Positions 5,709-28,511 of a stretch of 64,000 nucleotides of DNA are shown here, piece by piece. The position numbers were made by a program, and so were the translations under genes. Below the pieces are notes generated by a model. It was given only the letters and a program-made list of their open reading frames with translations. It was not told the DNA's origin and did no database searches. Each line of letters starts with the position of its first letter. Position 1 is the first letter of the stretch. Source of the stretch: Bacteroidaceae bacterium (GTDB lineage Bacteria; Bacteroidota; Bacteroidia; Bacteroidales; Bacteroidaceae); assembly GCA_045576655.1 (NCBI GenBank), contig JAZNGW010000028.1:35885-99884 (forward strand), in the 5' to 3' direction.

Positions 5709-5713
5709 CGACA

Positions 5714-7166: not shown

Positions 7167-10100
7167 TTATCGCACAACAACCTTAACCACGCTGTTAGCA
7201 GAGCGAACCATATATATGCCTGGCTGCTGCACTGCTGCGGATGAAAGTTTAGTGCCTCCGAGTGTGAATACTTCGAAATCGTCAGTGCCATGCACGATGA
7301 TGCGTCGGTCGACAACTGACACGCTCATGCCCGCGCCTTCGCCTTGTGACGCAACTCCGTCAATGCCGACAGCATCGGTGGAAATTCCGCCCTTGCTGAG
7401 CGCCACCCATCCGAACAAGTCGGCTGTGCTGCTGTTGTTCTTTATGCCAGTCTTGCTGGAGTCGACCAGTTTGCGCACTTTCATGTATTCAACATAAGTC
7501 TTGTCGTCAATCGTCTCATTATATACACTAGATTGACGAAGCACTGCGCCACCTGTGTAATTGAACGTTCTCATAGAAGCAAAGACAAGAGGATCTTCAA
7601 GGAGCAGCGTGTCATTGCGAGTCACATTGCCCTCTTCATCGTAATCACAATCCGTAAAGTACAAGTTACGGGCTCCGATGCCGTACACTTTCTCGTCGCT
7701 CAGTCCTGCAGTAAGAAGCAGACCTTCCTCCTCGTCGATGCACTCGGAGCCTGGTGTGAACGCTGCATAGAAGAGAGGCTGCGCTGTGGTCACCTGCACT
7801 CCTGCTGCTTCCTCATGGAAGGTGATGACCTTGAATCCTTCATTTGTGACATCCCACACTCTGACGAAATAAGGTTCGGCTGTGATTGTAGGGTTCAGTT
7901 CAGCCAATACGACAGGTGTGATGCCCTTAGGGAACGGTTTTGCAAACTTCACTTCAAGGGTGTCGCCCATTACGGCTGTAGTGGCCACCTCGATGTCCAT
8001 GTCGCCAAACGTGTGGTTGCCCAGAGGCAGAGACATAAACGGCACATTTTCAACCTTAGTGAAAGAAACAGGGTCGTCCTGATGCTGAAGAGCGAAATAC
8101 TTGTATGTGAACTTATCCTTTTCGACATCTGTCACGAGGCTTGTAGGAACTGCGTCAGCGTTCTTGCTTGTCACGAGACCTGTAAACACGGCAGGCGCCA
8201 CCTCATAAGGATAATTGAATTCAACAGTCACAGGGTCTGTATCCAAGATAGCAAGCGAGCCGTACTTGACGAAGTCGTTGCCCGTTGCGCTTGGTATGGA
8301 AATCATCACCTCGTTAGTTGTTCGAACCTTTCTGTCGGAGTCGTACTCCCTGATTCGGTAATACACAGCGCCCGATTTGCCAAGCAATGTGTCGTTTACC
8401 GTAAGCGTAGTGTTCTCCACGTCATACAGCGTCCTTACAGCGACATACAGATTGCTCTCCTCCTCAATCTTGCGCTCAAGAACTACAGAGTCAGCAAGTT
8501 CGCCGTTAGGATGGTTCCACTTAAGCGTCGCCACCTTCTTTGAAGCGGCAAAATCAACGGTCAGGTTTGAAGGTGATTTATACACCACGCGTGGCACGTA
8601 CTGATAGTTTTCGTTGTATCCGAGTCCGGAGTTCATCTCTGCATAGAACTCGCCAAGGATGGAAAGTCCTGTGCCATACTTATATATCTTAGAGCAGTCG
8701 GCCTCGCTGTTCCAATAGGCGTAACGCTCCACGTAAGGCCATCTGTTGAGGTTCTCAAGGATTGGACGCATGCCCTCATAGTTCGCCTGCTGTGCGGCTT
8801 CTGAGAACGAGCGGTCGCCTGCGAAGATTCCGTTGTTGTTCCATGAAGCACCCCACACAAACTCAGATATCCAGATTGGGCGCTTGTAGTCGTTGTACCA
8901 GTTCTGGAGGCCTGGGAACGAACCTGCAGGCCAGTAGCAGTGCATGTCGAGGATGTCGCAACGCCATCCGCGCGCGTCAATCTCGTTCATGAACTCGCGC
9001 AACCAGTTCAGGCTTCCGTCGTGCGACGAAGGCGAGCAGAGTCGCATACCTGTAGCCATTGCATCCTCCCAGTACGCCAACACCTCAGCCACTGTGCCAG
9101 GCTGGTCGTCGGCCGAGTTGCCTGGTTCGTTATCGGTCTTCATGTGAGGAGAATATGTCACACGTCCGCAGTCAGCCACAGCCGGCCATGATTTGTGAAT
9201 CTTGTGAGGCACTGTCTCGGTGTCCACGCCGCGATCCTGACCAGGTCCCCAGTCGTAGCACCATGCGGAATTCAGCACCTGGTTGCCCTCGGCGCCTGTG
9301 TCGCTGGCAAGTCCCTTCTTCTGCGCGTTGTTCCACTTGAACACACGGTAGGAAGTGATGTGCTTGTCGAGCACGGCAGGGAGAGTGGCAAACTCAAGGT
9401 CTTCATGGTCGGCAATGAAGCATCGGCTATAACCGCGTCCACGCGCACCGATAGAGAATGTGACCATATATCCTCGCTTGAGTTTAAAACTTCGTATTGC
9501 ATTGTTGAGTTTCGCATCTGTAAGAGTGTTCATGTAGCCGCCGCTATTCTCAAGTCCGAAGTCATTAACTGCCGTACCCTCGAAGTTCTGCTCCGAGTAG
9601 ACTGTAAGCGGCTTGAAGTCCTTGCCGTATGGATAAATGATAGTACCGGTGTTGTACATTCTCACCTGGCAGTTGACGTTATTCTGGGCAGCCTCGCCAT
9701 TGATGTAGATGTTCTGCATGTGGCGCGCCAAGACGAGCGACGGTTTTGTCTTGTCGATTATCACAACGGCGTCAGGGTTGACGATATTGACGCTTCCCGC
9801 TGTTGCAAACGGTGTGATGCCCGCAATGTGGAAGTCTACAGCCTCTGTGACGTTGATTGCCGATGTCACCTGGTAGGCAGTGTTAGGGTTGTTCTTTGCG
9901 TCCTTGAGGAATGCTGCCACGTTCTCCAGATCGGCATACGATGTTTCGCCGTCCTCATAGAGACCCTTAGCCATGTTTATCGCGCTCAGCAGCACCTCGT
10001 TCTGGCTGCTTGCGTATTCCTGTTCTGCCGCCTCGATTGCTGCAAGCAGGTTAGCATAAGCCGCACTTGACTCCTCAGCCTCATCCGTAGCCTTGCGCAA

Positions 10101-12152
10101 AGGAGTTGACACATTTACGTATCCGTCATATCCTTCTTTGAGTATTTCTGCCTCAGCCGCAGCCAACGCCTCGCCGAGCACCTCAGCCGCAGCAGTGTGC
10201 ATCTTCTTTCCGGAAAGCGCCTTGGCATTATCAATGTACTTCTGAAGTTCAGCCTTGAAGTCCGCTTCATTTCCTACATAGTAGAGGCGGAAGTTGTCAA
10301 CCGAAATCCAGTTACCGCTGGCGTTCTCCGCCATGAATCCTATCTCCGCCTCGCTTTCGATATTGACGAATGTGAGCACATACTCGCCAGTCTTGCCTAC
10401 CGACTCCTTGGTTCCGTTGGCAAAGATCCACGCACCTGTCTGCGTCACCGACGAGTTCTGCTGAATGTTCTGCGCACCAGCCTTCAACTGATACACGCCC
10501 ACTTCAAGACCTACAACATTCTGCAAGGCATAGCCGTTTCCGACACGGTTGCCCTGGCTGACCCACTTCTCCATGTAGACAGAGCCCTTCTTCTGGGTAA
10601 ATGACGTGTTAGTCTGGGTAACCAGTCCGCTCACGGTCCATCCCGTAGTCTGACTCTCGAAACTTGGGTTTGCTATGAGCGAAGTCTTATCTATAGGATT
10701 ATCAATCGAAGCATTGCCGTTGCGATAGTTTGTCACAGCCGAGACAAGCGAGTTGATGGCATCATTGACTTCCTTGCCAGTAGCGTCGGCGTTGCCATAC
10801 ACGGCGTTAGCCGCATCGATGGCAGACTTCAAGTCAGCAGCACCCTTGCCGCTGCCGTCGCCATAGAGCGCTGTCGCGTCACTGATGGCAGACTTCAAAC
10901 TGGCTGTAAGTTCCGACTTCTCCACTCCCTTAAAGATGAGTTCAAAACCCTGGAAGTTTGCCCACTGGTTGCTTGATGTCACCGCATACTTGATATTCAT
11001 TTCGCCCGTCGCGCTCACTGCTATGTTCTTTGCCCACGCCATAGCGTCGCCATGAGCCAAAGCCTGTCCGCACGACTGCATTCCGTTAGGCTGAATCTTA
11101 CCGTTCGAGCTCGACCAGTTATTGCCCGAAGTGTTTGTCACACCATAGTCAAGAGTTCCCATCAGCGGAGTCTTGCCCGTGTAAGTTCCCTTGCCAGTCT
11201 TCACCGTAAGAGTCGGAGCCGAACCCGAACCGTCCTCGCGATACAACGAATGGAAACCCACGTCATACGTGCCAAGAGGCACTATAGCATCCTGCACAAG
11301 CGTGAATGCAGAATGATAAATCTCCATTTCGCCCCATCCCGTAGCAGGCGAAGCACTTCCCCAGCCCTTAGCGCTCATTCCGCTGATAAAGTCGGCATTC
11401 TCGAGCAGGAACGACACGTTCAGTTCGCCGCTTATGTCGACAAACACCTTGCCGAACAACTTGCGCGAAGCCTCAGTGATACTCTCCACCGTGGCACGCC
11501 CGCTATTGTAAGCCGCCAAAGCCTCATCGAGAGCATCCTTATGCACCTCGGCCTTTCCAGCATCAGCAAGCGACTTGTATATGCCATACAGCCCCCTCTT
11601 CGCCTTGTACAGAGCATAGGCGCCATTAGTCAGGTTGCCCTCCTTGATGAACGCCCACTTTGTCTTGCCGGCACCATCCGTCAAAGTCAGATGACCGCCG
11701 TAAGTCCACGATACATCGAGAGCCTTGCCAAACTGGTCATTAGTCAGCGTGTAGACATTCTTGTCGCCAGTCTCCGCATAAGTGAAATAAGGGTTCGTAT
11801 TCTTGTTCATCACCACATCGTAGGCAGCGTCGCTTGCACAAGAAAAATAGTAACTGCCGCCCTTCTCCTTATTCCTCATACGGATTTTGCCGTCAGCCAC
11901 AAACACGTAGCTCTGCTGAGGAGTCGAAGCCTTCACATCGCCGTTCGACAGACGAGTGGCGCAAACCTGCGTATTGCTCGTCATACCATACATGGCAAAA
12001 GCGTCAGCCTCCACATTATATACATACACTATGTCCGACGAGCGCAAGCCGTCCAGACTTTCACCAGGCACCTGAGGCGCCGTCCATGTCTGAGCACCAG
12101 CCATAAGGAACGTCCCCGCCAAAAGGCACAAAATCAAAGTAAATCTTTTCAT
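7167..12152 (-). CDS. Giant T9SS cargo protein, paralog P1: shared N-terminal array + clan GH-A 'Glyco_hydro_cc' (PF11790/GH128-like) core + Fn3 + lectin-like repeats + T9SS CTD
   Basis: - Signal peptide 'MKRFTLILCLLAGTFLMAGAQTW'.
- Glycosidase motifs 'WCYDWGPG', 'KTDNEPG' (acid/base, nt 9123..9131), 'CDILDMHCYW' and 'KRPIWISEF' (nucleophile Glu, nt 8862..8864).
- C-terminal '...GIYMVRSANSVVKVVVR' sorting-domain-like tail. Confidence 0.75.
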   Translation of the reverse strand: MKRFTLILCLLAGTFLMAGAQTWTAPQVPGESLDGLRSSDIVYVYNVEADAFAMYGMTSNTQVCATRLSNGDVKASTPQQSYVFVADGKIRMRNKEKGGSYYFSCASDAAYDVVMNKNTNPYFTYAETGDKNVYTLTNDQFGKALDVSWTYGGHLTLTDGAGKTKWAFIKEGNLTNGAYALYKAKRGLYGIYKSLADAGKAEVHKDALDEALAAYNSGRATVESITEASRKLFGKVFVDISGELNVSFLLENADFISGMSAKGWGSASPATGWGEMEIYHSAFTLVQDAIVPLGTYDVGFHSLYREDGSGSAPTLTVKTGKGTYTGKTPLMGTLDYGVTNTSGNNWSSSNGKIQPNGMQSCGQALAHGDAMAWAKNIAVSATGEMNIKYAVTSSNQWANFQGFELIFKGVEKSELTASLKSAISDATALYGDGSGKGAADLKSAIDAANAVYGNADATGKEVNDAINSLVSAVTNYRNGNASIDNPIDKTSLIANPSFESQTTGWTVSGLVTQTNTSFTQKKGSVYMEKWVSQGNRVGNGYALQNVVGLEVGVYQLKAGAQNIQQNSSVTQTGAWIFANGTKESVGKTGEYVLTFVNIESEAEIGFMAENASGNWISVDNFRLYYVGNEADFKAELQKYIDNAKALSGKKMHTAAAEVLGEALAAAEAEILKEGYDGYVNVSTPLRKATDEAEESSAAYANLLAAIEAAEQEYASSQNEVLLSAINMAKGLYEDGETSYADLENVAAFLKDAKNNPNTAYQVTSAINVTEAVDFHIAGITPFATAGSVNIVNPDAVVIIDKTKPSLVLARHMQNIYINGEAAQNNVNCQVRMYNTGTIIYPYGKDFKPLTVYSEQNFEGTAVNDFGLENSGGYMNTLTDAKLNNAIRSFKLKRGYMVTFSIGARGRGYSRCFIADHEDLEFATLPAVLDKHITSYRVFKWNNAQKKGLASDTGAEGNQVLNSAWCYDWGPGQDRGVDTETVPHKIHKSWPAVADCGRVTYSPHMKTDNEPGNSADDQPGTVAEVLAYWEDAMATGMRLCSPSSHDGSLNWLREFMNEIDARGWRCDILDMHCYWPAGSFPGLQNWYNDYKRPIWISEFVWGASWNNNGIFAGDRSFSEAAQQANYEGMRPILENLNRWPYVERYAYWNSEADCSKIYKYGTGLSILGEFYAEMNSGLGYNENYQYVPRVVYKSPSNLTVDFAASKKVATLKWNHPNGELADSVVLERKIEEESNLYVAVRTLYDVENTTLTVNDTLLGKSGAVYYRIREYDSDRKVRTTNEVMISIPSATGNDFVKYGSLAILDTDPVTVEFNYPYEVAPAVFTGLVTSKNADAVPTSLVTDVEKDKFTYKYFALQHQDDPVSFTKVENVPFMSLPLGNHTFGDMDIEVATTAVMGDTLEVKFAKPFPKGITPVVLAELNPTITAEPYFVRVWDVTNEGFKVITFHEEAAGVQVTTAQPLFYAAFTPGSECIDEEEGLLLTAGLSDEKVYGIGARNLYFTDCDYDEEGNVTRNDTLLLEDPLVFASMRTFNYTGGAVLRQSSVYNETIDDKTYVEYMKVRKLVDSSKTGIKNNSSTADLFGWVALSKGGISTDAVGIDGVASQGEGAGMSVSVVDRRIIVHGTDDFEVFTLGGTKLSSAAVQQPGIYMVRSANSVVKVVVR

Positions 12153-12240
12153 ACAATATTATAATGGTTAAAACGTTTCCGCACATTTCTTCCATTATAA
12201 GACTGCATACCCGTCACAAAGTTTAAACAAGCCCCTAAAA

Positions 12241-12617: not shown

Positions 12618-13472
12618 TCACTTCAGTTCCAGCGGTTGGTGGACGTGTGCTTTCTGGAGGAATGGCAGACCGTTGGCGTATATGTAATTGTTGCCAATCA
12701 CTGTAATGTTGTTGATGTATTGGTTAATGGATGCCGTTCCGTTTCCGCCAATGTGATGGTACGGGTTCTTGGCATACTGCTTGCTGCCGAATATCTGGTT
12801 GCGGTATTTCAGCAGTTTGGAGTACTCCATGCGCTCGATGTCGACGCTTGGGGTGTAGGTGATTGGTGTTGCTTCGCGGCGCAGTTCGGCAAGGACGAAG
12901 CGGTGGGCGTCGCCTTCTGCCTTCACGATGATGCCAGGCAGTCCGCGCAAACGCCAGGGACCTGCAGACGATGGGATTTCTTCCGTGTACCATGCATCCC
13001 AACGTATTCCCCTGAAGGTCATCTCCGCGCGGTGGCACAGATAACCGCTAATGGTCAGCGTGTCGTCCGTAAGATTCCATTCCATTTGCGGTATTGGCTC
13101 GTGGCCTTCAAATGTGTGTGGAAATATGATTTCTTTCACCAGTGTCTCGCCCTCCGGATAGTTTATCCATACGGTTGGCATGTGTACGAGCGCCTCCTTG
13201 TGCTCCATTGCCATGGATTTTTTCCAGTCGTCGTCCTCGATGTCTTTGCCCTTTTCCTTTATGTATTGCATCAGGGGCTGAGACTTTGTTACGATTTGCC
13301 CCACTTGTACGACCAGCTGTATGGAGTCGCACACTGCCTCACCCTCATCATCGAGCGTGTTTACGGTATAGTCGTAGATTACGGCGAACTGCGCCGTATC
13401 TATACTGTCTTTTGTCTGTGCCTGCACTCCGATAGTCAGTGCGAAGGCGATGAATGATAGAATCTTTTTCAT
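12618..13472 (-). CDS. GLPGLI family protein
   Basis: Signal peptide. Family-defining motif 'LRGLPGIIVKAEGD' in a ~280-aa protein. Confidence 0.8.
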   Translation of the reverse strand: MKKILSFIAFALTIGVQAQTKDSIDTAQFAVIYDYTVNTLDDEGEAVCDSIQLVVQVGQIVTKSQPLMQYIKEKGKDIEDDDWKKSMAMEHKEALVHMPTVWINYPEGETLVKEIIFPHTFEGHEPIPQMEWNLTDDTLTISGYLCHRAEMTFRGIRWDAWYTEEIPSSAGPWRLRGLPGIIVKAEGDAHRFVLAELRREATPITYTPSVDIERMEYSKLLKYRNQIFGSKQYAKNPYHHIGGNGTASINQYINNITVIGNNYIYANGLPFLQKAHVHQPLELK

Positions 13473-13617
13473 TTTCGTTATTAGGGTTTGTTAACGAGCC
13501 CTCGTTTGTAAATAAATGAGCCCTCGTTTGCAAATAAATGAGCCCTCGTTCGTAAATAAACGCTACACCGTTTGCAAATAAATGCAGAAGCGTTGATATA
13601 AAAATGCTTCTCCGTTC

Positions 13618-14511
13618 TTATTCAATTTCGAGCGGTTGGTATACGTGACCCTCGGAGAGAACAATAACTCCTGCTACACTAATGATTTGCTGGTCGGAGA
13701 GGTTGCTGAGGTGATGTTCCCGGTAACCGAACGCTTCCATTGCACTTGGAGCGTAATATGTGGGATTCTGCACATAGCGCGGATTGCCGAGCACCTTCTT
13801 CTTGTGCTTCAGAAATTTCTTGGCGGTCATCTTCTGGTAGTCAATTCGTTGTCTTGCCATGCTCATTTTCCCTGAATTCATTTGAGGTACGAACCAATTG
13901 AGATACTCTGTAAATATCAGTGGTTGCTCTTCGTTGAGAAGTCCGCAAAGAGCGAATGAGTGTATTCCCTCCTCATCTTCCACCTTGGTTATCATACCTG
14001 GCAGCCCACCCAATTTCCAAGGGCCTATGCTTGCCGGAATCTCTTCCGTGTAGAATGCTTTCCATGTTTTGCCACGGAATTTTGTCTCTGCCGCATGACA
14101 CAGGTATCCGAATATGGAGTCCTCCTGTTCACTGAGATTCCACTTTTGCTTTTGCAGAGGTTCGTCCGTCTGGTAGAGGGAGGGGTAAAGTTCTTCCTGC
14201 ACAGTGATACGTCCTTCAGGATAGTTCAGAAAGACATCGCCCATGTGCATCTGCGCGGCTTTTTGGGTGTAGTAGCTGTCGGTCTTTTTCTTTGTCTGCT
14301 TGTTGTAAGAGTTGTAAGGGAAACTCTTGGTCACTCCGTTGGCTGTCTGCACAGCAATAAGGAGCGAGTCGGTGATAAGCTCGCCGGCAGCATTCGTTGT
14401 CTTGCAACAGTACTGGTATATGGCAGTAAACTTCGACACTCCGATAGTGTCGTTTTGCGCCTGCGCCGTCATTGCCAGCAACAGAGCGAGAGCGAAGATA
14501 GTCTTTTTCAT
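13618..14511 (-). CDS. GLPGLI family protein (second tandem copy)
   Basis: Internal Met gives 'MKKTIFALALLLAMTAQAQ'. Motif 'LGGLPGMITKVEDEE'. The ORF-track start at 14580 would overlap the upstream gene. Confidence 0.8.
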   Translation of the reverse strand: MKKTIFALALLLAMTAQAQNDTIGVSKFTAIYQYCCKTTNAAGELITDSLLIAVQTANGVTKSFPYNSYNKQTKKKTDSYYTQKAAQMHMGDVFLNYPEGRITVQEELYPSLYQTDEPLQKQKWNLSEQEDSIFGYLCHAAETKFRGKTWKAFYTEEIPASIGPWKLGGLPGMITKVEDEEGIHSFALCGLLNEEQPLIFTEYLNWFVPQMNSGKMSMARQRIDYQKMTAKKFLKHKKKVLGNPRYVQNPTYYAPSAMEAFGYREHHLSNLSDQQIISVAGVIVLSEGHVYQPLEIE

Positions 14512-14537
14512 ATCAATGCGTTTAATTACAAAGGTTA

Positions 14538-17108: not shown

Positions 17109-17352
17109 GGATATTAATAATTCTAATTCGAGGGATTGACACACATGGGCTTTTCCGAAATGGCAGGCGCAAAGTAAAACCAAATCTTTAGAATACTAAA
17201 ATATTAGTAAAGGAAATAGCGCTCCTAACCAAAACATTTAACTTCCATTTTTAGTAATAGAATCGGAGTTATTAGTAGTTAACAAATGGGGCGCAAAAGC
17301 TCTTTACTGCTGTGCCGATTTTTCACAACGCTGAAGCGCTGATAAATAAAAC

Positions 17353-18885: not shown

Positions 18886-21800
18886 TTATCTCACAAGAAC
18901 TTTCTTCTTATTGACGATGTAGATGCCTCGTGGAAGACCCTCGAGAGAGTCGCCTACCTTCTGCCCCTGGAGGTTGTAAACCACAACAGGGACGTTGTCG
19001 GTTTCAGTCTCAACCGCATCGATATCAGTGATGTGGTCCTTGGTCATATCTCCATAGTAGTAGAGGTGGAAGTTGTCGAAGATTGTCCAATAGCCGTCAC
19101 TGCTTGATGAGCAACGCAGACCAATCTTGAGACTATTCTTGCCCTCTGCCAACTCGGTCATGATTTCATTCTCATAGAGTCCCTTAGCGAAGTACTTGCT
19201 TGCTGCTTCCATGTTGTCAGGGATGTAGCGAACAGGGCTTCCCACTGATGCCTCTGAACCGCCGAGTTTTGAAGTGCGTGCTTCGGTGCCGATATGAGCC
19301 ACCTTAACCGATTCGGTGTTAGCGTAGAGGTATGTAGTCACCTTGTTAGTGCCGTTGACATAGTCAGAGTAAGCCGTAGCATACGCTCCTGGACGCTGGA
19401 ACGCCTGAACTGTTGTCTTGTAAGTTCCTGCAGGGAGTCCGGTAATTGTCTGGTTGAAGTCGAACGTAGCTTGATAGAACTCAAGGCATGAGAAGTTAAA
19501 TGTCGGAGCCACTGACCATCCTGTGTTGTCGCTGATTGAAGCATTCGTCACAAGGAAAGTAACGTCAAACGGTTCGTCAACGCTTGCAGGAGTAGCATTT
19601 GCAAGGAAGTCCATTCCTGCCTGGCTTGTGCTCTCAATTGTAGCGCGGAGCAGATCGAGACCGGAATTTGCATCATCGGCAACGGTCTGAGCGTAAGACA
19701 GAGCTGCGTCGATAGCAACGTCTGCACCTTCAGCATCTTCAGTGTGAGGAGTTGACTTCACCTTATTGAGGTTGGTAATAAGGGTCTTCAGTTCGTTGAG
19801 AGCTGAGAGACGTGCCGCTTCATCAAACTTGAGGGTCTCCTCAGCCGTGAGAATCACCCAGTGCTGCGATGCCGCGTCGGCTGAAAGGTCGAAGCCAGTT
19901 GCGCCCACATTGCCTGAAGCAGTAGCCACCATAGCACGTGGATTATTGTTTGTCACGTTCATAATCCAGTAGCCACGGACGTTAGTTGCCGACGTACCGC
20001 TACCTACCTTTATGTCTTTTCTGCCCTTCATGACGTGGAATTTCTCCGTAGCCGCAGGAGTAGTCTTCGTTGCAACCTTGAAGGTAGAGTTGCTGTAAGT
20101 GATGTACTGACCAGTGCCTACATTGCGGAACATGTAGTATTGCTTCACTGGGTCGAAGCTGAGGTACCATGCGAAGTTGTCGTCGTTAGCAACGTCAACC
20201 GATGTCGCTTCCTTCCACTTGAGCGAAGTGCCGCTCACCGTCAGATAGGAAGTAGTGAGTCCGAACGACGCACTTTCGTTCTTGATGTAGTACTTAACCT
20301 CATCGTCATGCTCAAACGTATATGCTGGCAGAGCAAAGCATCCGCTTGTAGGGGCTACTCCATCTTCATGCAATCCCTGAATGATGAGCGCCTGAGCCAT
20401 GTAGAGAGCGTCAGAACCGTTGTCTTCGTGAGCACCATTGATTCCATAAGGCCACATGTGCTGACTATCACCAGCCATTTTTGCCGTCGTGTTGTTATCC
20501 CAGAACTGGAGAACGCTGTTTGCGCGAGGACCTGTCCACGAACCGTCTACGAGCATTGTCCACCATCCGTTCTGAGTACCGACACCCACACCGTGGGCTG
20601 CCTCGTGGAGGATTGTACCTGTGCGCTGATATGAAACGTTAGGACCTACTCGCATCCATCCGCCGTAAGAGCAGTCGGCCGTAGGAGTGCCCGAACCGTA
20701 GTTGCCTGAAAGGTGGAATCCCTGCGTGCTCACAAGCTTGCCCCAAATGTCCTCGATGCCGTGGCGCATAGCTTCGCTAATACGTGCATTCTCCTCTGCG
20801 CTACCACCATTGTTCCAAGACCAGCTGATATTAGCCTTAGGGAGAGTGATAATCTTTATCTCATCGCCGTATGCCACCTGATAGCCCTCAGTCACGACAT
20901 AAGGGCGAGCGTAATAGACGGTTGAAGGCTTCATGTTCTCCATTATATAGATGCGTCCGCTATTGTCGATGTATCGTGTAGAACGCTGGTCGAGCACAGT
21001 AGGGTTCTTCTCAGTAGAGAAGCAGAATCCTGCCTCACGAAGTTTAGCTCCGTTGATATTGTATGTGAATCGGCCGAACGCCATCACCGAACCGCGTGCA
21101 TAGCGCTTGTCAGTCTTAGTTATTATCGGCATTGCCCCTGTAGGCGACTGAAGCATGAATGCAAATGCCGCCTCGTCGAGAAGCACGATGTGGTTAGCAA
21201 GGTCAGCATACGAAGTCGCTCCGTCGGCATAAGCAGCCTTTGCCGCATTGATTGCCGCGAGATATTCCTCTGCCCCCTCGCCAGCTCCGTCGCCATACTG
21301 AGTTTCAGCCTTTTCGATAGCGGCAAGCAGTTCAGCATAAGCGGCGATAGAGCGGTTTGCCTCGTCCGTAGCCTCGCGAAGCGGAGTTGAAACCTTGACA
21401 TAGCCCTCGGTTGCAGACTTGCCAAGTTCAGCAAGCACATCAGCCATCTTAGCGTCGAGAGCGTCCTTAGCGGCAGAGTGCATCTTCTTGTCTGCGATAG
21501 CAGCCGCCGCGTCATAGTAGCCCTGAAGAGCAACCTTGTAGTCGGCATCAGTACCTCCGATGTAGTAGAGTCGGAAGTTGTCGGCAGCGAGCCAGTTGCC
21601 CGTAGCGCCCTGAGCCATGAATCCTATTGTAGCGCTGCTTTCGATGTTTGTGAATACCAATGAATATTCAGCAGTCTTGTCAACAGCCGCCTTTGTGTTA
21701 TTAGCAAAAATCCACGCTCCGCTCTGCGATGCGTTAGGAGTGTCCTCCTGTATGTTCTGCGCACCGGCAACAAGTTTGTAAATACCGAGGTCGAGCCCCT

Positions 21801-23445
21801 CGATCTTTTGCACAACAGAAGCATCACCCACCTGTCCGCCTCTGCCAGTCCACTTCTCCACGTAAGTCGTCCCCTTCTTCTGCTTGAAAGACGAGTTTGT
21901 CTGAGTAGCCATGTGCTGAGCGGTCCATCCTTCAAACTGCTTCTCGAAACTTGGGTTGACAATAAGCGAAGTCATGTCGATAGGGTCCTCCTCCGAAGCA
22001 TTGCCATAGCGGTAGTTCTTCATGGCAAGCACGAGAGCGTCAATCTGCCTCTTCACGTCAGTGTTTGTAGCGCTCGCATCTGCACATACAGCCTGAGCCG
22101 CATCGATAGCCGCCTTCAGAGCCGCTGCCCCATTGCCTGTACCATCGCCATAGAGCGCAGCAGCCTCACTGATTGTTGCCTCAAGGTTCCCGACAAGCTC
22201 CTCCTTGCTCAGTCCCTTATAGATGAGTCGGAAGCCCTGCCAGTTCACCCACTGGTTGCTCGATGTCACCGCATATTTGATATTGACAGCGCCCTCAGCG
22301 TCGACAACGATATCCTTAGCCCAAGCCATAGCGTCGCCATGAGCCAAAGCCTGGCCGCACGACTGCATGCCGTTAGGCTGGATCTTGCCGTTGACGCTTG
22401 TCCAGTTGTTGTCCGTAGCATTTGTCACAGCATAATCGATTGTTCCCATCAGAGGAGTCTTTCCTGTGTAAGCGCCCTTGCCAGTTGTTACAGTAAGAGT
22501 TGGCGCCACACCCGAACCGTCCTCACGATAGAGCGAATGAAAACCGAGATCGTATGTTCCTAGCGGAAGCACATTGTCCTGTTCGAGAGTGAATGCCGAG
22601 TGGTAAATCTCAAACTCCTCCCAACCGAAAGCAGGGCTGCCGCTGTACCACTTGTCAGCACTTGCATTGCCCACCATGTCCGCATTGTCAAGCATGAACG
22701 ACACGTCGATAAGTTCAGTCAAGTCAACGCATACCGCCTTGAAGAGCTCGCGCGAAGCCCTCTCTATGCTCTCCACCGTAGCATTAGAAGCACTATAAGC
22801 CTCAAGGGCAGTTGCAATGGGCGCCTGATAAGCCCCTTCCTTGCCAGCATCCGCCACAGCCTTGTACACGTTGTACATAGCCTTCTTTGCCTTATACAGA
22901 GCGTAAGCACCATTAGTGATGTTAGACTCCTTGACAAATGCCCACTTCGTCATGCCCGCACCACCAGTAAGAGTCAAGTGACCGCCGTAAGTCCACGACA
23001 CGTCCAGCAACTTTCCAAACTTGTCATTGCTGAGCGTATACACACGGCTGCCTTCAGCAGTCTCCGAGTAAGTAAAATACTGGTTTGTCGACTTATTTAT
23101 AACTACATCATAAGCCGCCTCGCTTGGACAGGAAATGTAGTACGACCCGCCCTTCTCCTTGTTTCTCATCCTCACCTTACCGTCCGAAGCAATAACAGTG
23201 CTTTGATTAGGGATTGAGGCGGTATAGTCGCCGTTAGTCAGTCGAGCGGCACAAGCCTGCGTGTTGCTCGTCATGCCATACATCACGAAAGCGTCAGCCT
23301 CCACATTATAAATATACACTACGTCGGTCGACTTCAATCCGTCGAGACTTTCCCCAGGCACCTGCGGAGCCGTCCATGTCTGCGCCACAGCCGCCAACGA
23401 TGTACCTAAACATAGGCATAAGAAAGAAAGAAATCGGTTCTTCAT
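18886..23445 (-). CDS. Giant T9SS cargo protein, paralog P2: shared N-terminal array + Ig-like + HExxH zincin-like domain + ricin-like lectin + beta-sandwich + T9SS CTD
   Basis: 'GTILHEAAHGVGVG' (nt 20593..20607). QxW-type lectin repeats ('YYIKNE', 'YYMFRNVGTGQYIT', 'SQHWVIL'). Tail '...VVVYNLQGQKVGDSLEGLPRGIYIVNKKKVLVR'. Confidence 0.75.
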   Translation of the reverse strand: MKNRFLSFLCLCLGTSLAAVAQTWTAPQVPGESLDGLKSTDVVYIYNVEADAFVMYGMTSNTQACAARLTNGDYTASIPNQSTVIASDGKVRMRNKEKGGSYYISCPSEAAYDVVINKSTNQYFTYSETAEGSRVYTLSNDKFGKLLDVSWTYGGHLTLTGGAGMTKWAFVKESNITNGAYALYKAKKAMYNVYKAVADAGKEGAYQAPIATALEAYSASNATVESIERASRELFKAVCVDLTELIDVSFMLDNADMVGNASADKWYSGSPAFGWEEFEIYHSAFTLEQDNVLPLGTYDLGFHSLYREDGSGVAPTLTVTTGKGAYTGKTPLMGTIDYAVTNATDNNWTSVNGKIQPNGMQSCGQALAHGDAMAWAKDIVVDAEGAVNIKYAVTSSNQWVNWQGFRLIYKGLSKEELVGNLEATISEAAALYGDGTGNGAAALKAAIDAAQAVCADASATNTDVKRQIDALVLAMKNYRYGNASEEDPIDMTSLIVNPSFEKQFEGWTAQHMATQTNSSFKQKKGTTYVEKWTGRGGQVGDASVVQKIEGLDLGIYKLVAGAQNIQEDTPNASQSGAWIFANNTKAAVDKTAEYSLVFTNIESSATIGFMAQGATGNWLAADNFRLYYIGGTDADYKVALQGYYDAAAAIADKKMHSAAKDALDAKMADVLAELGKSATEGYVKVSTPLREATDEANRSIAAYAELLAAIEKAETQYGDGAGEGAEEYLAAINAAKAAYADGATSYADLANHIVLLDEAAFAFMLQSPTGAMPIITKTDKRYARGSVMAFGRFTYNINGAKLREAGFCFSTEKNPTVLDQRSTRYIDNSGRIYIMENMKPSTVYYARPYVVTEGYQVAYGDEIKIITLPKANISWSWNNGGSAEENARISEAMRHGIEDIWGKLVSTQGFHLSGNYGSGTPTADCSYGGWMRVGPNVSYQRTGTILHEAAHGVGVGTQNGWWTMLVDGSWTGPRANSVLQFWDNNTTAKMAGDSQHMWPYGINGAHEDNGSDALYMAQALIIQGLHEDGVAPTSGCFALPAYTFEHDDEVKYYIKNESASFGLTTSYLTVSGTSLKWKEATSVDVANDDNFAWYLSFDPVKQYYMFRNVGTGQYITYSNSTFKVATKTTPAATEKFHVMKGRKDIKVGSGTSATNVRGYWIMNVTNNNPRAMVATASGNVGATGFDLSADAASQHWVILTAEETLKFDEAARLSALNELKTLITNLNKVKSTPHTEDAEGADVAIDAALSYAQTVADDANSGLDLLRATIESTSQAGMDFLANATPASVDEPFDVTFLVTNASISDNTGWSVAPTFNFSCLEFYQATFDFNQTITGLPAGTYKTTVQAFQRPGAYATAYSDYVNGTNKVTTYLYANTESVKVAHIGTEARTSKLGGSEASVGSPVRYIPDNMEAASKYFAKGLYENEIMTELAEGKNSLKIGLRCSSSSDGYWTIFDNFHLYYYGDMTKDHITDIDAVETETDNVPVVVYNLQGQKVGDSLEGLPRGIYIVNKKKVLVR

Positions 23446-23500: not shown

Positions 23501-23557
23501 GAAAAAATCCCACACCCTGCAAAATTACCTTCTGCAAGATTCCACAGGGGGAAACGA

Positions 23558-23701
23558 CCCGCTCCGCACTGCTAAATTCACAACCCCTCGGAGAAAAGTA
23601 TAAATAAAAGTAATATTTGTACAAATAATAGTTTTATTTATATAAATATTAGTTTTATTCTTACAAATATAAGTTTTATTTATACTTTTCAGCGAAGGGT
23701 C
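23558..23701. repeat. AT-rich quasi-palindromic element with 17-bp inverted repeats bracketing a 64-bp segment (copy 1); inverton-like
   Basis: IRs GAAAAGTATAAATAAAA (23593..23609) and TTTTATTTATACTTTTC (23674..23690). Second copy at 62126..62272, with flanks reversed but an identical inner segment. Confidence 0.8.
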
Positions 23702-23773
23702 AGAAAGTTTGCACCGAGGTGAAAACAGTTTTTCATCCCAATTGGATTGATTTTTCAAGTCGTTGAATCTGAT

Positions 23774-23813
23774 AAAAAAAAGGAGAACGCATCATTAGAG
23801 ACGCATCCTCCTT
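23774..23813 (-). terminator. Probable rho-independent terminator of P3
   Basis: Minus strand: AAGGAG ... CTCCTT stem (22-nt loop) followed by TTTTTTTAT. Confidence 0.4.
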
Positions 23814-23840
23814 GTTGTTTTCAAAGCGATAAAGAGCTGG

Positions 23841-26800
23841 CTACTGCACAAGCACCTTCTTCTTGTTTACGATGTAGACGCCTCGTGGAAGCCCCTCGAG
23901 CGTGTTGCCCACTTTCTGTCCGTGGAGGTTGTACACCTCGACCGGTTTGTCAGAGTCTTCGCCAACCGTTTCATCCGCCTCGACCTTGTCGATTGCCGTC
24001 ACTGTCTCCGGCGAGATTGTTCCGTAGTAGTAGAGGCGGAAGTTGTCGAACACGCTCCAGTAGTTTGTACCTGCAGAAGGGCACTTGATTCCTATCTTGA
24101 GCGACGCGCCTTCGTCGTCCAGACGTGTGGCCACTTCGTTCTCGTAGGTTGAGAGCTTGAGATATGCCTCAGCCGACGCCATAGTGTTAGGTATGTAGCG
24201 TGTAGATGTGCCCACCTCGACATCATCGGCGTGGAGACGGGTGCGCCTTGCGCCTGCGGCGATGTTCTTAACCTTCACGGTGCTGGCTCCGGCATAGAGA
24301 ACGGTGTTGACATTGTCTGTGCCGCCTGTGTAGGAGTCGTAGACTGCATCGTATGCTCCCGGACGCTGGAAGGCCTTGGCGCGGAGCTGGTATGTTCCGG
24401 CTGGAAGACCGGTGATTGTCTGGTTGAAGTCGAACGACGACTGGAAGTACTCAAGGCATGAATTGCCGAATGTCGGTTTGGTTGACCACCCGCTGTTGTC
24501 GTCGATGGCGGCGTTCTTGACAAGGAATGTGATATTGAACGGACGGTACATGCTGGTTGGTGTGGCCTTGCCGAGGAAGTTCATTCCGGCTGTGCGAACC
24601 TGCTCTATCAGGGCTGTCACTTCGTTGGCAGTGGCTGCATCTGCGGCAAGGGATTCGACCGTAGCGATATCGTCGTCGAGAGCTGCGTCTGCTCCTGGCA
24701 CGTCCTCTGTGTGGGAAGTGAGTTTGAGTCGGCGCACATTGCTGATCATCTCGTCGAGTTCGGCAAGTGCCTTGTCCTTGAGTCCTGTCTCAAACTGCTC
24801 TATCTCGTCGGCCTGAAGGAATATCCATCGCTGTGCTGTGGCTGAGTTGTAGAGGTCGAGCGTGTTGGCTGCCACTCCTCCGTTGGCTGTAGCGGTAAAT
24901 GTGGCAGGATTTGACTTGGCTTCCGGGTGGATAATCCAATATCCGCGAGTCTTGAAACTGCCGAGTGCGACGTCCTGACGTCCCTTCATGAGGTGGAAGT
25001 CTTCGTTGGCGGCAGGTGTTGACTTGACGGCTGTCCTGATGCCGTTGGCCCCGTTGGCGGTGAAGGTGAGGTAGCGTCCTGTGGCAGCGTTGCGGAACTG
25101 GTAGTACTGGTTGTCTGGAGTGAAGGAGACGTACCATGCGGCACTGTCGTTGAGAGTGACGTCGCTTCCTGCCATGTCCATCCACTTGACGATGCCGTTC
25201 TTCTGTTCCACGAGATAGGAAGTGGCAAGTCCGCGGTCGGCAGATTCGCTCTTGATGTAGTACTTGGCATTGTCGTCCTGCTCGAAGACGTATGCCGGCA
25301 AGCAGAATGCTCCGGAATAGAAGTTGACAGGAATGAGTCCGTCTTCGCAGAATCCCTGGTTGATGAGGGAGTTGCCGATGTAGAAAACCTCTGTGTCGTT
25401 CCAGTTCTGAGGACCTGCCCAAGCACCTGGTTCGAGGTGTGCACCGTTGTGAGGGTATTTGTTGTGGAAGATGTTGTCCTGCGAGTAAGTCTCGCCCTTG
25501 TTTATAACGCCCCAGTGACCGCCGTCGTAAGCGCCGGTGATGACGAGGTTATCGTTGTTTTCCCAGAAACGCACTGCCTCGTTGGCACGGTCGCCCGCCC
25601 AGTAGCCGTTCACGGTTTCACGAAGCGGAGAAACTACCCATCCGCCCCAAATCTCGAGCGTACCGCCACCGATGCCGTGGTTCATCTCGTGCATGCAGGT
25701 TCCTGCACGCTGTCCCATGTTCGTACCGATACGCATTCCGCCGCCATATCCGCAGTCGGCGGTAGGGGTGCCAGGCGAGAATGTGCACGACACGTTGAAT
25801 CCGCGTATGCTGGTGTAGTTTGACCAGTAAGTAGTGGCAACCGTAAGTGCCGTGTTGATACGGTCGTTGTGTGCGGCGTCGCCACCGTTGTTGTACCAGT
25901 ATGTCACTCGTCCCTGCGGCAGAGTGGACATCTTGATGACATCGCCATAGCCCACAGCATAGCCCTTGGTGATAGCATAGGCACGCATGTAGTAGACTGT
26001 GGCCGGTTGCATGTCCATCCAGTACATGCGTCCGTTGTTTTCCAGATATTTTGTTGTGCGGTTGTCGAGCACGGTAGGGTCAGGTTCTGTGCTCCAGCAG
26101 AATCCCTGTTCAAGGATTTCGGAAGAAGTGACACCGCTCACCGTCATACGTCCGAATGCGGCGATGGCACCACGCACATAGCGCTTGTCAGTCACCACCG
26201 TAGGAACGGCGCCTGTAGGGTTGGTGAGGTTGTACTCAAACTCTGCCTTCTCAAGTTTCACGATCTCGGCAGCCATCTCTTCGAAAGTGGCGTCGAGGTT
26301 GTCGTTGACAGCCTTAGCCCCGTTGATTACGGCGAGGAACTTCTCCGCACCCTTCATCACACCGTCGCCATAAGCCACCTCAGCCTTGGCGATTGCGGCA
26401 GTGAGGTCGGCGTAAGCCTTTATCGAAGCCTTTGCCTGCTCCACAGCCTCGCGAAGCGGAGTGGACACAGCAGTGTAGCCATCGGCATTGTCCTTCTGGA
26501 GTTCAGCCTCAGCGGCTGCAATGCACGCCTTGAGGTTGTCGAGCACAGCATTGTGCATCTTCTCCCCTATGTATGGTTTGGCAGTCTCGATATAGCCCTC
26601 AAGTTCCTTCTTGAAGTCAGCAAACTCGCCACCGGCATAGTAGAGGCGGAAGTTGTCGACCGAAATCCAGTTGCCCGTAGCGCCTTCGGCAAGGAATCCT
26701 ACCGTAGCCTCATTCTCGATGTTGACGAACGTCACAGAATACTCATCCTTGCCCACAACCTCAGTCTTGGAGTTGTTGGCAACGACCCACGCACCAGTCT

Positions 26801-28511
26801 GAGCAGCGGAAGAACCCTCCTGAATGTTTTGGGCGGCAGCCTTGAGCACATAGACACCGAGTCCGAGACCATTCACCTTCTGCATCACGCTGCCATCGCC
26901 TACCTTACCGCCAGCACTGGTCCACTTCTCTACGTATGTGTTGCCATGTTTCAGAGAGAAGGCAGTGTTAGACTGGGCAGCCATGCCCGTCTGCGTCCAT
27001 CCCTCAAAACTGTTCTCAAAACTGTTGTTCACAATCAGGTGGCTCATATCCACCGGATTGTCCACCGAAGCCGATGTCCAGCGGTACTTCTCGATAGCAG
27101 AGAGCAGGTCGCTGTTAGCCATGATGACATCCGACTGACTTGCCGACTCATCGGCATACACAGCCTTAGCCGCATCGAGAGCAACCTTAAGGTCGGCAGC
27201 ACCCTTGCCGCTACCGTCGCCATAGAGAGCCTCAGCCTCGTCGATGGCATTCTTCAGTCCGTCCTTCACCGAAGCATCGCCAATGCCCTTGTAGACTATC
27301 ACGAAGCGCTGCCAGTTCAACCACTGCTCAGTGCTTGTCATCTTAGCGCTCACCGTAAGTTTTCCGTCCGAACCGACCTTCACATCGTCAGTCCACACAA
27401 GACTTCCGTCATGAGCCAGCGCCTGGCCGCACGACTGCATGCCGTTAGGAAGGAACTTTCCGTTAGAGGCAATCCAGTTGTTGCCCTGGTCATTGCCCAC
27501 AGCATACTCCAACGCACCTATAGCCACAGCACTCGCGCTTGCCGAAGTCTCACCCGAAGCAGTAACCTTCGGAGCAGTGCCACTGCCGTCCTCACGATAG
27601 AGAGCCTGCCAGCCCACAGAGTAAGAACCCTGAGGCACAGTCTGAGTCTGGCTCAAAGTGAAAGCAGAATGATACACCTCAAACTCGCCCCATCCGAAAG
27701 TGGCGTTGCTCGTAGCCCAGTTAGCCAAGTCGCCCTTGCCCACCATGTCGGCATCGTCGAAAAGGAACGACACGTCGACAGGCTCAGCCACATCGGCATA
27801 CACTGCCCAGAAGAGCGTGCGTGCAGCATCGATCACCTGCGAGGCCGTAGCGTCAGCATTGTCATAGACCGCCTTGGCGTCAGCAATGTACTTGGCATAC
27901 ACATCAGCCTTTCCGGCATCAGCCACTGCTTTGTACACGCCATACATCTGGCGCTTCACCTTATATGCCATGTAGCGGCCGTTGGTCACGTTCTCCTCCT
28001 TGATGAAAGCCCACTTCGTATGGCCATCACCCCCAACGAGAGTCACATGCCCGCCGAAGTCCCAGGTCACGTCAAGGTCCTTCCCCCACTTGGTATTGTT
28101 GAGAGTATAGACATTGCTCCCCTCTGCCGTCTCCGTGTAAGCAAAATACGGGTTAGCATTCTGGTCGCAATACACATCGTCGGCATTCAGACTTGGGCAT
28201 GAAAGAAAGAGCGTGTTATACGTCTTCATTCTAACTCTCACGTTTCCGCCCGAAACAAAAGCATAGCAGCGCTGAGGGTCTGACGCCGTAGCGTCGCCGT
28301 TGGTTAGTCGGGTAGCACAAGCGTTTGTGCCCCATGTCATACCGTTGATAAGGAAGGCGTCAGCCTCCACATTATAGAAATACACCACGTCCGACGATTT
28401 CAGTCCGTCGAGGCTCTCGGCAGGAACCTGAGGTTCCGTCCATGCCTGAGCCACGGCCGTCATAACCAAAGTGCCCCATAGAGCCATGGCAAAATAGATA
28501 CGTTTCATCAT
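23841..28511 (-). CDS. Giant T9SS cargo protein, paralog P3 (tandem duplicate of P2 architecture): HExxH zincin-like + ricin-like lectin + T9SS CTD
   Basis: Start at 'MMKRIYFAMALWGTLVMTAVAQAW'. 'GTCMHEMNHGIGGG' (nt 25677..25691). 'AQRWIFL' QxW motif. Tail '...VEVYNLHGQKVGNTLEGLPRGVYIVNKKKVLVQ'. Confidence 0.75.
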   Translation of the reverse strand: MMKRIYFAMALWGTLVMTAVAQAWTEPQVPAESLDGLKSSDVVYFYNVEADAFLINGMTWGTNACATRLTNGDATASDPQRCYAFVSGGNVRVRMKTYNTLFLSCPSLNADDVYCDQNANPYFAYTETAEGSNVYTLNNTKWGKDLDVTWDFGGHVTLVGGDGHTKWAFIKEENVTNGRYMAYKVKRQMYGVYKAVADAGKADVYAKYIADAKAVYDNADATASQVIDAARTLFWAVYADVAEPVDVSFLFDDADMVGKGDLANWATSNATFGWGEFEVYHSAFTLSQTQTVPQGSYSVGWQALYREDGSGTAPKVTASGETSASASAVAIGALEYAVGNDQGNNWIASNGKFLPNGMQSCGQALAHDGSLVWTDDVKVGSDGKLTVSAKMTSTEQWLNWQRFVIVYKGIGDASVKDGLKNAIDEAEALYGDGSGKGAADLKVALDAAKAVYADESASQSDVIMANSDLLSAIEKYRWTSASVDNPVDMSHLIVNNSFENSFEGWTQTGMAAQSNTAFSLKHGNTYVEKWTSAGGKVGDGSVMQKVNGLGLGVYVLKAAAQNIQEGSSAAQTGAWVVANNSKTEVVGKDEYSVTFVNIENEATVGFLAEGATGNWISVDNFRLYYAGGEFADFKKELEGYIETAKPYIGEKMHNAVLDNLKACIAAAEAELQKDNADGYTAVSTPLREAVEQAKASIKAYADLTAAIAKAEVAYGDGVMKGAEKFLAVINGAKAVNDNLDATFEEMAAEIVKLEKAEFEYNLTNPTGAVPTVVTDKRYVRGAIAAFGRMTVSGVTSSEILEQGFCWSTEPDPTVLDNRTTKYLENNGRMYWMDMQPATVYYMRAYAITKGYAVGYGDVIKMSTLPQGRVTYWYNNGGDAAHNDRINTALTVATTYWSNYTSIRGFNVSCTFSPGTPTADCGYGGGMRIGTNMGQRAGTCMHEMNHGIGGGTLEIWGGWVVSPLRETVNGYWAGDRANEAVRFWENNDNLVITGAYDGGHWGVINKGETYSQDNIFHNKYPHNGAHLEPGAWAGPQNWNDTEVFYIGNSLINQGFCEDGLIPVNFYSGAFCLPAYVFEQDDNAKYYIKSESADRGLATSYLVEQKNGIVKWMDMAGSDVTLNDSAAWYVSFTPDNQYYQFRNAATGRYLTFTANGANGIRTAVKSTPAANEDFHLMKGRQDVALGSFKTRGYWIIHPEAKSNPATFTATANGGVAANTLDLYNSATAQRWIFLQADEIEQFETGLKDKALAELDEMISNVRRLKLTSHTEDVPGADAALDDDIATVESLAADAATANEVTALIEQVRTAGMNFLGKATPTSMYRPFNITFLVKNAAIDDNSGWSTKPTFGNSCLEYFQSSFDFNQTITGLPAGTYQLRAKAFQRPGAYDAVYDSYTGGTDNVNTVLYAGASTVKVKNIAAGARRTRLHADDVEVGTSTRYIPNTMASAEAYLKLSTYENEVATRLDDEGASLKIGIKCPSAGTNYWSVFDNFRLYYYGTISPETVTAIDKVEADETVGEDSDKPVEVYNLHGQKVGNTLEGLPRGVYIVNKKKVLVQ

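Follow-up and report, generated by a model that had tools for sequence, protein, structure and literature searches.

Three giant predicted secreted proteins of a Bacteroidaceae bacterium join one non-catalytic arm to two unrelated predicted catalytic units

We analyzed a 64,000-nucleotide stretch of DNA from a Bacteroidaceae bacterium (assembly GCA_045576655.1, contig JAZNGW010000028.1, positions 35,885 to 99,884; hereafter the window), which encodes three giant predicted secreted proteins on its minus strand. These proteins, labeled P1, P2, and P3, have an N-terminal region of about 735 residues in common (hereafter the arm), which is followed in P1 by a unit resembling glycoside hydrolase (GH) family 128 and in P2 and P3 by an unrelated unit with an HExxH motif. 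The coordinates of all features are collected in Table 1.

The arm common to P1, P2, and P3

Comparison of the three proteins by BLASTP (E = 0 for every pair) gave 64% identity between P1 and P2 across residues 3 to 752, 50% between P1 and P3 across residues 1 to 742, and 49% between P2 and P3 across their full length. In a three-way alignment, the breakpoint lies at residue ~755 of P1 (nucleotide ~9888), ~762 of P2 (~21160), and ~758 of P3 (~26238), beyond which P1 no longer resembles P2 or P3. The colinearity over about 750 residues described in an earlier sequence-only reading of the window is borne out, with aligned breakpoints within a few codons of the coordinates given there, and every motif quoted in that reading (AQ(T/A)WT..., the FIVAR-like helix sequence, and GNW..DNFRLYY) was found. 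For P3, the ATG at 28511 fits the N-termini of P1 and P2; an alternative TTG start upstream, at 28538, was given by the open reading frame (ORF) tool.

About 60 columns of the alignment of the first modules of the arm (trefoil, helix, and first jelly roll) are invariant, even in homologs with 33 to 40% identity. Together with BLASTP and the three-way alignment, this rules out a low-complexity artefact as the source of the N-terminal similarity. Identity at the third codon position among the three paralogs is 0.3 to 0.65, i.e., near saturation, and the longest exact nucleotide match among them is 29 nucleotides. We therefore consider the similarity to be old and maintained by selection; a recent gene conversion or very recent duplication is ruled out by the same two measurements. 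Over its first 400 residues, the arm of P1 is about 75% identical to that of P2, which makes these two closer to each other than P2 and its full-length paralog P3. In the protein collection searched and among GTDB representatives, the best relatives are 65 to 97% identical.

An AlphaFold2 model of residues 1 to 640 of P1 (predicted local distance difference test score, pLDDT, 88) resolves the arm into a trefoil, helices, a first jelly roll (B1), FIVAR-like helices, a second jelly roll (B2), and further helices. The head, helices, and two sandwiches named by the sequence-only reading are thus all present in the model, in a module order that differs from the one proposed there. Approximately half of the modeled arm consists of helical spacer. 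In Foldseek searches against the PDB, the N-terminal trefoil matched designed and natural beta-trefoils with a template modeling (TM) score of 0.78, and both this trefoil and the internal trefoil of P2 matched HA33, Symfoil, and actinohivin with a probability of 1.0 (target TM 0.73 to 0.79). The jelly rolls of the arm resemble the carbohydrate-binding module (CBM) TmCBM61 (E = 7.6e-7, TM 0.65), and further matches were obtained to CBM16, CBM22, Xyn30D (GH30-CBM35), and a porphyran CBM, with TM scores of 0.5 to 0.6 for single-module CBMs. A distant relationship links B1, B2, the sandwich B3 of P2 and P3, and a module of the neighboring GH141 protein.

No Pfam or NCBIfam model matched the arm at threshold, and an NCBIfam scan of complete P1, P2, and P3 gave no match. 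The ricin-type family PF14200 reached 19 bits in P3, vs. a cut-off of 25.6, and did not match P1 or P2. Residues 419 to 474 of P1 scored 18.4 bits on the FIVAR family PF07554, vs. a cut-off of 29.2, and are helical in the model, hence the label FIVAR-like. DUF5013 gave faint, sub-threshold Pfam matches in relatives and none in P1 to P3. The earlier statement that this architecture is not a characterized family therefore stands for Pfam, NCBIfam, and PDB sequences.

Catalytic units and C-terminal tails

Residues 960 to 1155 of P1 match PF11790 (59.1 bits, cut-off 21, E = 6.4e-16), which confirms the clan GH-A glycosidase core proposed by the sequence-only reading. This core aligns with GH128 structures over about 190 residues, with 6UAQ at E = 6e-13. 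We take the glutamates of the NEP and (S/T)E motifs to be the catalytic acid/base and nucleophile, respectively, from general knowledge of clan GH-A. The H_lectin family is sub-threshold in the region that follows (E = 0.0065), and P1 homologs exceed the threshold. Residues 752 to 1660 of P1 align end to end, at 47 to 60% identity, with stand-alone proteins of about 925 residues from gut and rumen Bacteroidales, and the alignment begins directly after the signal peptide of these homologs. A search with this unit of about 900 residues returned more than 2200 matches; the stand-alone homologs bear PF11790, and some add an H-type lectin or a dockerin. Taken together, the P1 unit is predicted to be a complete and widespread retaining clan GH-A glycosidase, PF11790/GH128-like, with lectin-like accessory domains.

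The GH128 beta-1,3-glucanases (PF11790; 6UAQ, 6UFL, 6UAT) and P1 are alike in scoring above the Pfam gathering score and in having NEP and (S/T)E in register. However, the relationship is distant (E ~1e-12), the P1 core lies within a ~900-residue unit with an extra N-terminal domain and H-lectin-like modules, and the fucose and plant-wall context of P1 (see below) does not suggest beta-1,3-glucan as substrate. A literature search on PF11790/Glyco_hydro_cc, GH128, and rumen metzincins found no paper describing P1 to P3.

The unit of P2 and P3 (about 760 residues) matched no Pfam or NCBIfam model at cut-off. AlphaFold2 modeling of residues 760 to 1290 of P2 (pLDDT 91.8) gave an Fn3/Ig domain, a compact alpha/beta domain, a beta-trefoil, and helices. 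The order of Ig-like, HExxH, trefoil, and sandwich domains deduced previously for P2 and P3 is confirmed. The HEAAH motif lies on helix 183 to 193 of the alpha/beta domain in the model, whose topology is beta-alpha-beta-beta-alpha. The C-terminal part of the P2 model matches trefoil lectins and Fn3 domains in Foldseek, and its trefoil carries a QxW motif. More than 1000 matches (clusters at 90% identity) belong to the family of this region, mostly "hypothetical proteins" of about 780 residues from gut and rumen metagenome-assembled genomes (MAGs) of Prevotella, Bacteroidaceae, and Bacteroidales. Like the P1 unit, this unit therefore occurs widely by itself as a complete predicted enzyme.

H188, E189, H192, and G195 of the HExxHxxG motif are invariant across 30 family members; the Cys in TADCSYGG, the downstream His in HMWPYG, and the Asp of an EDG motif are also invariant within the family. 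The position of the third zinc ligand of metzincins (HExxHxxGxxH/D) is occupied by Thr or another non-ligand residue (HEAAHGVGVGT). A candidate third ligand is the His of HMWPYG, which does not vary and lies about 45 residues further downstream, and the conserved H-M-W-P-Y segment could be a Met-turn. When the isolated domain was compared with PDB sequences, all 22 weak matches were metzincins, as were most of those in Pfam. They include BMP1/TLL1 of the astacin family (E = 0.08 to 0.17, across the edge strand and active-site helix), MMP-12 (E = 0.2), and sub-threshold matches to Astacin, M10, M66, and Reprolysin_3. PF13402 (M60-like/enhancin) gave no match at E <= 10 among 17 catalytic-domain sequences or in the full proteins. 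Since the third-ligand position is neither His nor Asp and the matches are weak, we refer to the domain as a metzincin-like zincin and do not assign it to a known family; by its conserved motifs it is a putative zinc peptidase. P3, whose zincin domain is divergent, is a conserved subtype, with P3-type relatives in L012, L018, and P0297.

The mature N-termini of P1 to P3 are predicted to start with Gln (A-x-A followed by Q-T/A-W-T). In Bacteroidetes, signal peptidase I is reported to expose an N-terminal Gln (PMC5837995), and the three proteins fit this rule. At the other end, the sequence-only reading had assigned a type IX secretion system (T9SS) C-terminal domain (CTD) to all three proteins. 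In P2 and P3, TIGR04183 is sub-threshold (18.9 and 17.0 bits vs. 23), and so is PF18962 (15.7 and 14.9 bits vs. 27); the tail of P1 matched neither hidden Markov model (HMM). Dockerin repeats stand in place of the CTD-like tail in head-bearing relatives (L017 at 7799-11356, P0049, P0051, P0304, P0307, P0309, P0317, and P0323), and one dockerin-bearing head relative comes from a MAG labeled Bacteroidaceae. This exchange of tails supports a role of the tail as a localization tag; P1 to P3 are candidate T9SS cargo.

Distribution and genomic neighborhood

Among 185,579 species representatives, the arm was found in 17 loci only. All 17 belong to MAGs labeled Bacteroidaceae, Prevotella, Prevotellaceae, Paraprevotella, or Bacteroidales, most of them with ruminant-gut sample names. 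In 16 of these loci the zincin unit is fused to the arm; the remaining one (L017) instead has the GH unit, followed by trefoil and B1. At E <= 1e-3, an exhaustive profile search with the trefoil-helix-B1 part (hereafter the head) found 1196 representatives, of which 66 reached E <= 1e-30, and modules were mapped in the best 63 head-bearing representatives.

The mapped representatives include several arrangements of head and zincin, as well as the GH unit followed by trefoil and B1 (P0049, P0051, and again L017) or by head and B2 (P0307). P0304 is a 2569-residue ORF, called as one gene on a contig of 13 kb, that contains the GH unit, the head (trefoil, helices, and first jelly roll), Fn3, and zincin in one chain. 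P0295 is a full-length P1-type protein of 1660 residues on another contig; its overall identity to P1 is 72%, in a mosaic of 90% in the GH core and 47 to 61% in other modules. Many head-bearing proteins, of up to 2544 residues, consist of jelly rolls and helices only. When 28 further proteins with the head were scanned with Pfam, only sporadic domains appeared, e.g., Y_phosphatase3 and PI-PLC-X, and the five longest, scanned separately (P0296, P0298, P0299, P0301, and P0313; 1553 to 2544 residues), had no Pfam match at E <= 1e-3. Other head-bearing relatives, e.g., P0047 and P0048, have a common conserved C-terminal segment (LPF...AN.PY...RAYL) just ahead of a CTD-like tail.

The models, the stand-alone homologs, and these further combinations substantiate the earlier view that one N-terminal non-catalytic scaffold is combined with different catalytic units. 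The survey for other swapped heads, suggested with that view, returned the GH-head and GH-head-zincin combinations and heads on non-catalytic arrays; the others are mostly without Pfam annotation.

On the contig L018 (positions 1 to 8793), a relative of P3 (92% amino acid and 90% nucleotide identity) is followed directly by a P1-type gene (72% amino acid identity) and then by HIT and GreA genes. The P1-type gene there occupies the position that P2 has in the window, and the order P2, FucP, GLPGLI, P1 is missing. This layout suggests a rearrangement or cassette exchange at the locus.

From position 42570 down to 17411 the window contains co-directional genes, with a GH29 gene first and the gene of the L-fucose:H+ symporter FucP last, and the minus-strand run continues to P1. 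Terminator-like hairpins follow directly after P3 (23780-23813, minus strand; 14-bp stem, then a T run) and P1 (7123-7146, minus strand; 10-bp stem), which suggests that one transcription unit stops after P3 and another after P1. The two GH29 alpha-L-fucosidases are paralogous (67% identity over about 800 residues), and in homologs a weak relationship connects their DUF5013 modules with the arm's jelly rolls. The GH141 protein (1544 residues) combines a GH141 insertion domain, a beta-helix, FG-GAP repeats, and a B2-type jelly roll (residues ~1344-1494) that also occurs in P1 to P3; the C-terminal region of P2, including its tail, aligns weakly (23% identity) with the end of this protein. The divergent genes for an AraC regulator, aldo-keto reductase, Amidohydro_2 protein, and Zn-dependent dehydrogenase may, together with FucP, constitute an oxidative (non-phosphorylative) L-fucose catabolic pathway.

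In the closest relatives, the P2-like genes are also preceded by GH29 and/or GH97 genes (L001-L003, L023, and L024), and in one relative GH43, GH127, and GH97 lie upstream of the P2-like gene. A strictly conserved fucosidase neighborhood is rejected, as it is kept in the closest relatives only. In two independent contigs (L023, 3566-5411; L024, 480-2307), the upstream GH97 gene is split into two overlapping calls, GH97_N and then GH97 catalytic plus C-terminal domains, which may reflect a frameshift or a programmed split. We conclude that P1 to P3 lie in a fucose-harvesting cluster, and that the theme of these neighborhoods is decorated plant-wall, possibly host, glycans and not one fixed operon.

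Table 1. Features of the window (aa, amino acid residues; AF2, AlphaFold2)
Feature	Coordinates	Strand	Description	Basis
GH106 rhamnosidase	2752-5532			Pfam
P1 coding sequence	7167..12152	-	1661 aa; arm fused to GH128-like glycosidase unit	intact ORF
P1 C-terminal tail	7170-7382	-	resembles T9SS sorting domain	no HMM match
P1 post-catalytic accessory region	7170..8582	-	H-type-lectin-like, with C-terminal tail
P1 clan GH-A (beta/alpha)8 core	8583..9302	-	PF11790/GH128-like	Pfam
P1 WISEF, putative nucleophile Glu	8859-8873	-	aa 1094-1098; in register with WLTEY (TE) of 6UAQ
P1 DNEPG, putative acid/base Glu	9120-9134	-	aa 1007-1011; in register with NEP of 6UAQ
P1 arm	9888..12092	-	aa 21-755
P1 helical spacer	9888-10271	-	reaches aa ~755
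P1 jelly roll B2	10272-10712	-	aa ~506-625; ends in DNFRLYY	AF2
P1 FIVAR-like helices, three	10713-10919	-	aa 412-479	AF2
P1 jelly roll B1	10920-11432	-	aa ~270-409	AF2
P1 helical linker	11433-11636	-	aa 171-239	AF2
P1 trefoil	11637-12092	-	12-stranded beta-trefoil, aa ~40-170, ~150 aa	AF2
881-aa CarboxypepD_reg-domain protein and two GLPGLI genes (TIGR01200)	12618-17183	-	between FucP and P1
L-fucose:H+ symporter FucP	17411-18694	-	directly downstream of P2	TIGR00885 equivalog, 548.6 bits vs. cut-off 280
P2 coding sequence	18886..23445	-	1519 aa; arm fused to Fn3, zincin, trefoil, jelly-roll unit	intact ORF
P2 C-terminal modules, all	18889..20295	-
P2 putative T9SS CTD	18889-19059	-		TIGR04183 sub-threshold
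P2 jelly roll B3	19060-19593	-	related to B1/B2
P2 helices	19594-19842	-
P2 beta-trefoil	19843-20295	-		Foldseek trefoil matches, probability 1.0
P2 HExxHxxG zincin domain	20296..20841	-		AF2, alignment
P2 conserved HMWPYG	20443-20460	-
P2 HEAAH	20593-20607	-
P2 arm	21160..23382	-	aa 22-762	BLASTP, alignment
P3 coding sequence	23841..28511	-	1556 aa; architecture as in P2	intact ORF
P3 zincin domain	25263-25913	-	divergent, ~30-aa insertion
P3 HEMNH	25677-25691	-
P3 arm	26238..28448	-	aa 22-758	BLASTP, alignment
GH97	28757-30565	-		Pfam
GH141, FG-GAP, B-type jelly roll	30858-35492	-		Pfam
GH29 with one DUF5013	35522-37909	-		Pfam
GH29 with three DUF5013	38350-42570	-		Pfam
AraC regulator, aldo-keto reductase, Amidohydro_2, Zn-dependent dehydrogenase	42838-46730	+	divergent from GH29 genes

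The far end of the window has a different character. The guanine-cytosine content falls from ~0.52 to ~0.43 across positions ~48000-64000, and a Fimbrillin_C protein is encoded there at 57496-59085, along with three large minus-strand ORFs without Pfam match (49431-52445, 52480-54714, and 54726-56219). The region may represent an island for a type V pilus or adhesin that has another origin.

A possible capture arm for two enzymes

We propose that P1 to P3 are old paralogous fusions, in which a non-catalytic capture arm of about 735 residues was placed on the mature N-termini of two unrelated secreted enzymes acting on one substrate, and we assign this proposal a probability of roughly 0.55. 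A functional link among the arm, the GH128-like unit, and the zincin unit is indicated by their repeated co-occurrence in independent arrangements, once within one chain. The proteins would be exported by their Sec signal peptides, exposing the N-terminal Gln, and the C-terminal sorting tail would carry them across the outer membrane, leaving the C-terminus tethered. If so, the catalytic unit would lie near the cell and the rigid, helix-spaced array of lectin- and CBM-like modules would point outward, with the arm distal and the trefoil at its tip. The array may then capture a fucose-decorated plant-wall or host glycoconjugate and thereby bring a backbone glycosidase and peptidases to one substrate, while the neighboring GH29, GH141, and GH97 enzymes would trim side chains and FucP would import the freed fucose. 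Glycan binding by the arm is what its predicted folds suggest. A glycoprotein or proteoglycan is a plausible substrate of P1, P2, and P3: the fucose cluster and the plant-wall GH neighbors of homologs fit a fucosylated plant or host glycoconjugate, without proving a protein-linked one.

Several observations weigh against this proposal. The arm shows likeness at the level of folds only (TM 0.6 to 0.8, single domains), with no sequence membership in a CBM or lectin family. The fucosidase synteny is confined to the closest relatives; more distant scaffold-zincin genes adjoin GH115, GH28, or esterase genes or unrelated genes, and the stand-alone homologs of the P1 glycosidase are not found in obvious glycan-utilization loci. 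In the zincin domain, the third-ligand position lacks the metzincin residue, sequence resemblance to metzincins falls short of significance (E = 0.08 to 0.2), and no zincin fold appears among the top 50 Foldseek matches of residues 760 to 1290 of P2, where trefoil and Fn3 matches dominate. Finally, the T9SS sorting domain is sub-threshold in P2 and P3 and undetected in P1.

The main rival explanation takes the arm to be mainly a rigid stalk or spacer, or an adhesin for protein-protein or cell-cell contacts, i.e., a generic surface-display chassis without substrate recognition. The helical half of the arm would suit such a role, most of the 66 strong head-bearing representatives resemble adhesin-type arrays of jelly rolls and helices with a CTD or dockerin tail and without a recognizable catalytic domain, and the sporadic fusions to Y_phosphatase3 and PI-PLC-X involve unrelated domains. 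We nevertheless regard this explanation as unlikely, since trefoils and jelly rolls are classic carbohydrate-binding folds and the head occurs repeatedly with exactly the same two enzyme units in varied order. Moreover, many polar and aromatic residues of the trefoil and B1 are among those invariant in the 33 to 40% identical homologs, which fits a ligand site better than a stalk.

A second rival concerns the HExxH domain, which would not be directed at glycoproteins and could be a peptidase for general nutrition or for maturation, or else a zinc hydrolase of a non-peptidase kind; the arm would then target a matrix of polysaccharide with different substrates embedded in it, and the enzymes would not cooperate on one substrate. 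Such a role would be in line with the lack of a significant match to any peptidase family, the non-canonical third zinc ligand, and the varied neighborhoods of the stand-alone and 1250-residue relatives, which include GH115/GH28 and housekeeping genes. We consider it distinctly unlikely, because the invariant HExxHxxG, the metzincin-type alignment of strand and helix (CxSYxG...G.N...G.xxHExxH), and the beta-alpha-beta-beta-alpha topology point to a zincin, because enzymes guided by glycans typically show flanking lectin-type domains such as the QxW trefoil and jelly roll here, and because the GH-head-zincin fusion P0304 exists in nature.

It is very improbable that the fusions are a mere by-product of a conserved 5' region serving as recombination substrate, with 3' catalytic cassettes exchanged at one locus without selection for joint function: the P1-type gene at the P2 position on L018, the nearness of the P1 arm to P2, and the mosaic identity of P1 and P0295 speak for exchange, but the saturated third codons and the lack of long identical tracts argue against a recent one, all copies are intact with conserved motifs, and recombination, which is compatible with a capture arm, would account for the origin of the fusions and not for their maintenance.

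Our proposal of a capture arm on two enzymes can be carried further, in a joint form that we hold to be possible but doubtful. The Fn3-HExxHxxG-trefoil unit would represent a new, large family of glycan-guided metallopeptidases, directed at plant hydroxyproline-rich glycoproteins, arabinogalactan-proteins, or fucosylated host mucins, and the arm would be a previously undescribed substrate-capture module. Having been repeatedly recombined with the peptidase and the GH128-like glycosidase, and joined with both in one polypeptide in a single case, it would serve the combined breakdown of glycan and protein in one substrate. In addition, the extended conserved 5' stretch may be a recombination handle for catalytic cassettes.

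Modular secreted glycan-degrading enzymes with binding modules are already known, as are glycan-guided metallopeptidases. The latter comprise mucinase-type enzymes with lectin or CBM and FIVAR modules, such as the M60-like/enhancin proteins (PF13402), StcE (M66), and Clostridium perfringens Zmp, in which, by implication, recognition of the glycan guides cleavage of the protein. P2 and P3 resemble them in an HExxH domain flanked by carbohydrate-binding-type domains and FIVAR-like spacers, and in their glycosidase neighbors. They differ in having no M60 Pfam match and, for M66, one weak match (E = 0.029, in 1 of 17 members), in a metzincin-like (HExxHxxG) and not gluzincin motif, and in carrying a trefoil and unclassified jelly rolls in place of CBM32 or CBM51.

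The best whole-chain Foldseek match of the arm was the Cry1Ac protoxin (4W8J, E = 7e-15), which likewise alternates helical bundles and CBM-like beta-rolls. However, the global TM score of 0.17 indicates no more than architectural likeness, the sequences show no relationship, and Cry1Ac belongs to an unrelated biology (crystal packaging).

Multi-modular, T9SS-linked glycoside hydrolases of rumen Bacteroidetes have been described for "Candidatus Paraporphyromonas polyenzymogenes" (PMC5831590). These enzymes are reported to be, like P1 to P3, very large, secreted proteins of uncultured rumen Bacteroidetes, with catalytic and binding modules and a T9SS tail that is present or proposed. They are cellulases with known GH and CBM families, whereas the arm and zincin of P1 to P3 match no curated family, the arm is common to a glycosidase and peptidases, and the T9SS tail is sub-threshold only. 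The novelty of P1 to P3 lies in the arm and the zincin family, both uncurated, and in their joint use with a GH128-like glycosidase.

Bacteroidales of the herbivore gut hold much unannotated secreted protein, and the locus ties three such pieces (the arm, the zincin family, and the GH128-like unit) to one another and to a fucose-harvesting cluster. Even if the proposed capture function should not be true, the locus provides a clean example, with clear boundaries, of how domains are shuffled in modular surface enzymes. If the arm binds a defined glycan and the zincin is glycoprotein-directed, the proteins would represent a new peptidase family and new binding modules for the breakdown of plant-wall glycoproteins or mucins, and a natural example of one targeting module common to glycosidase and protease partners.

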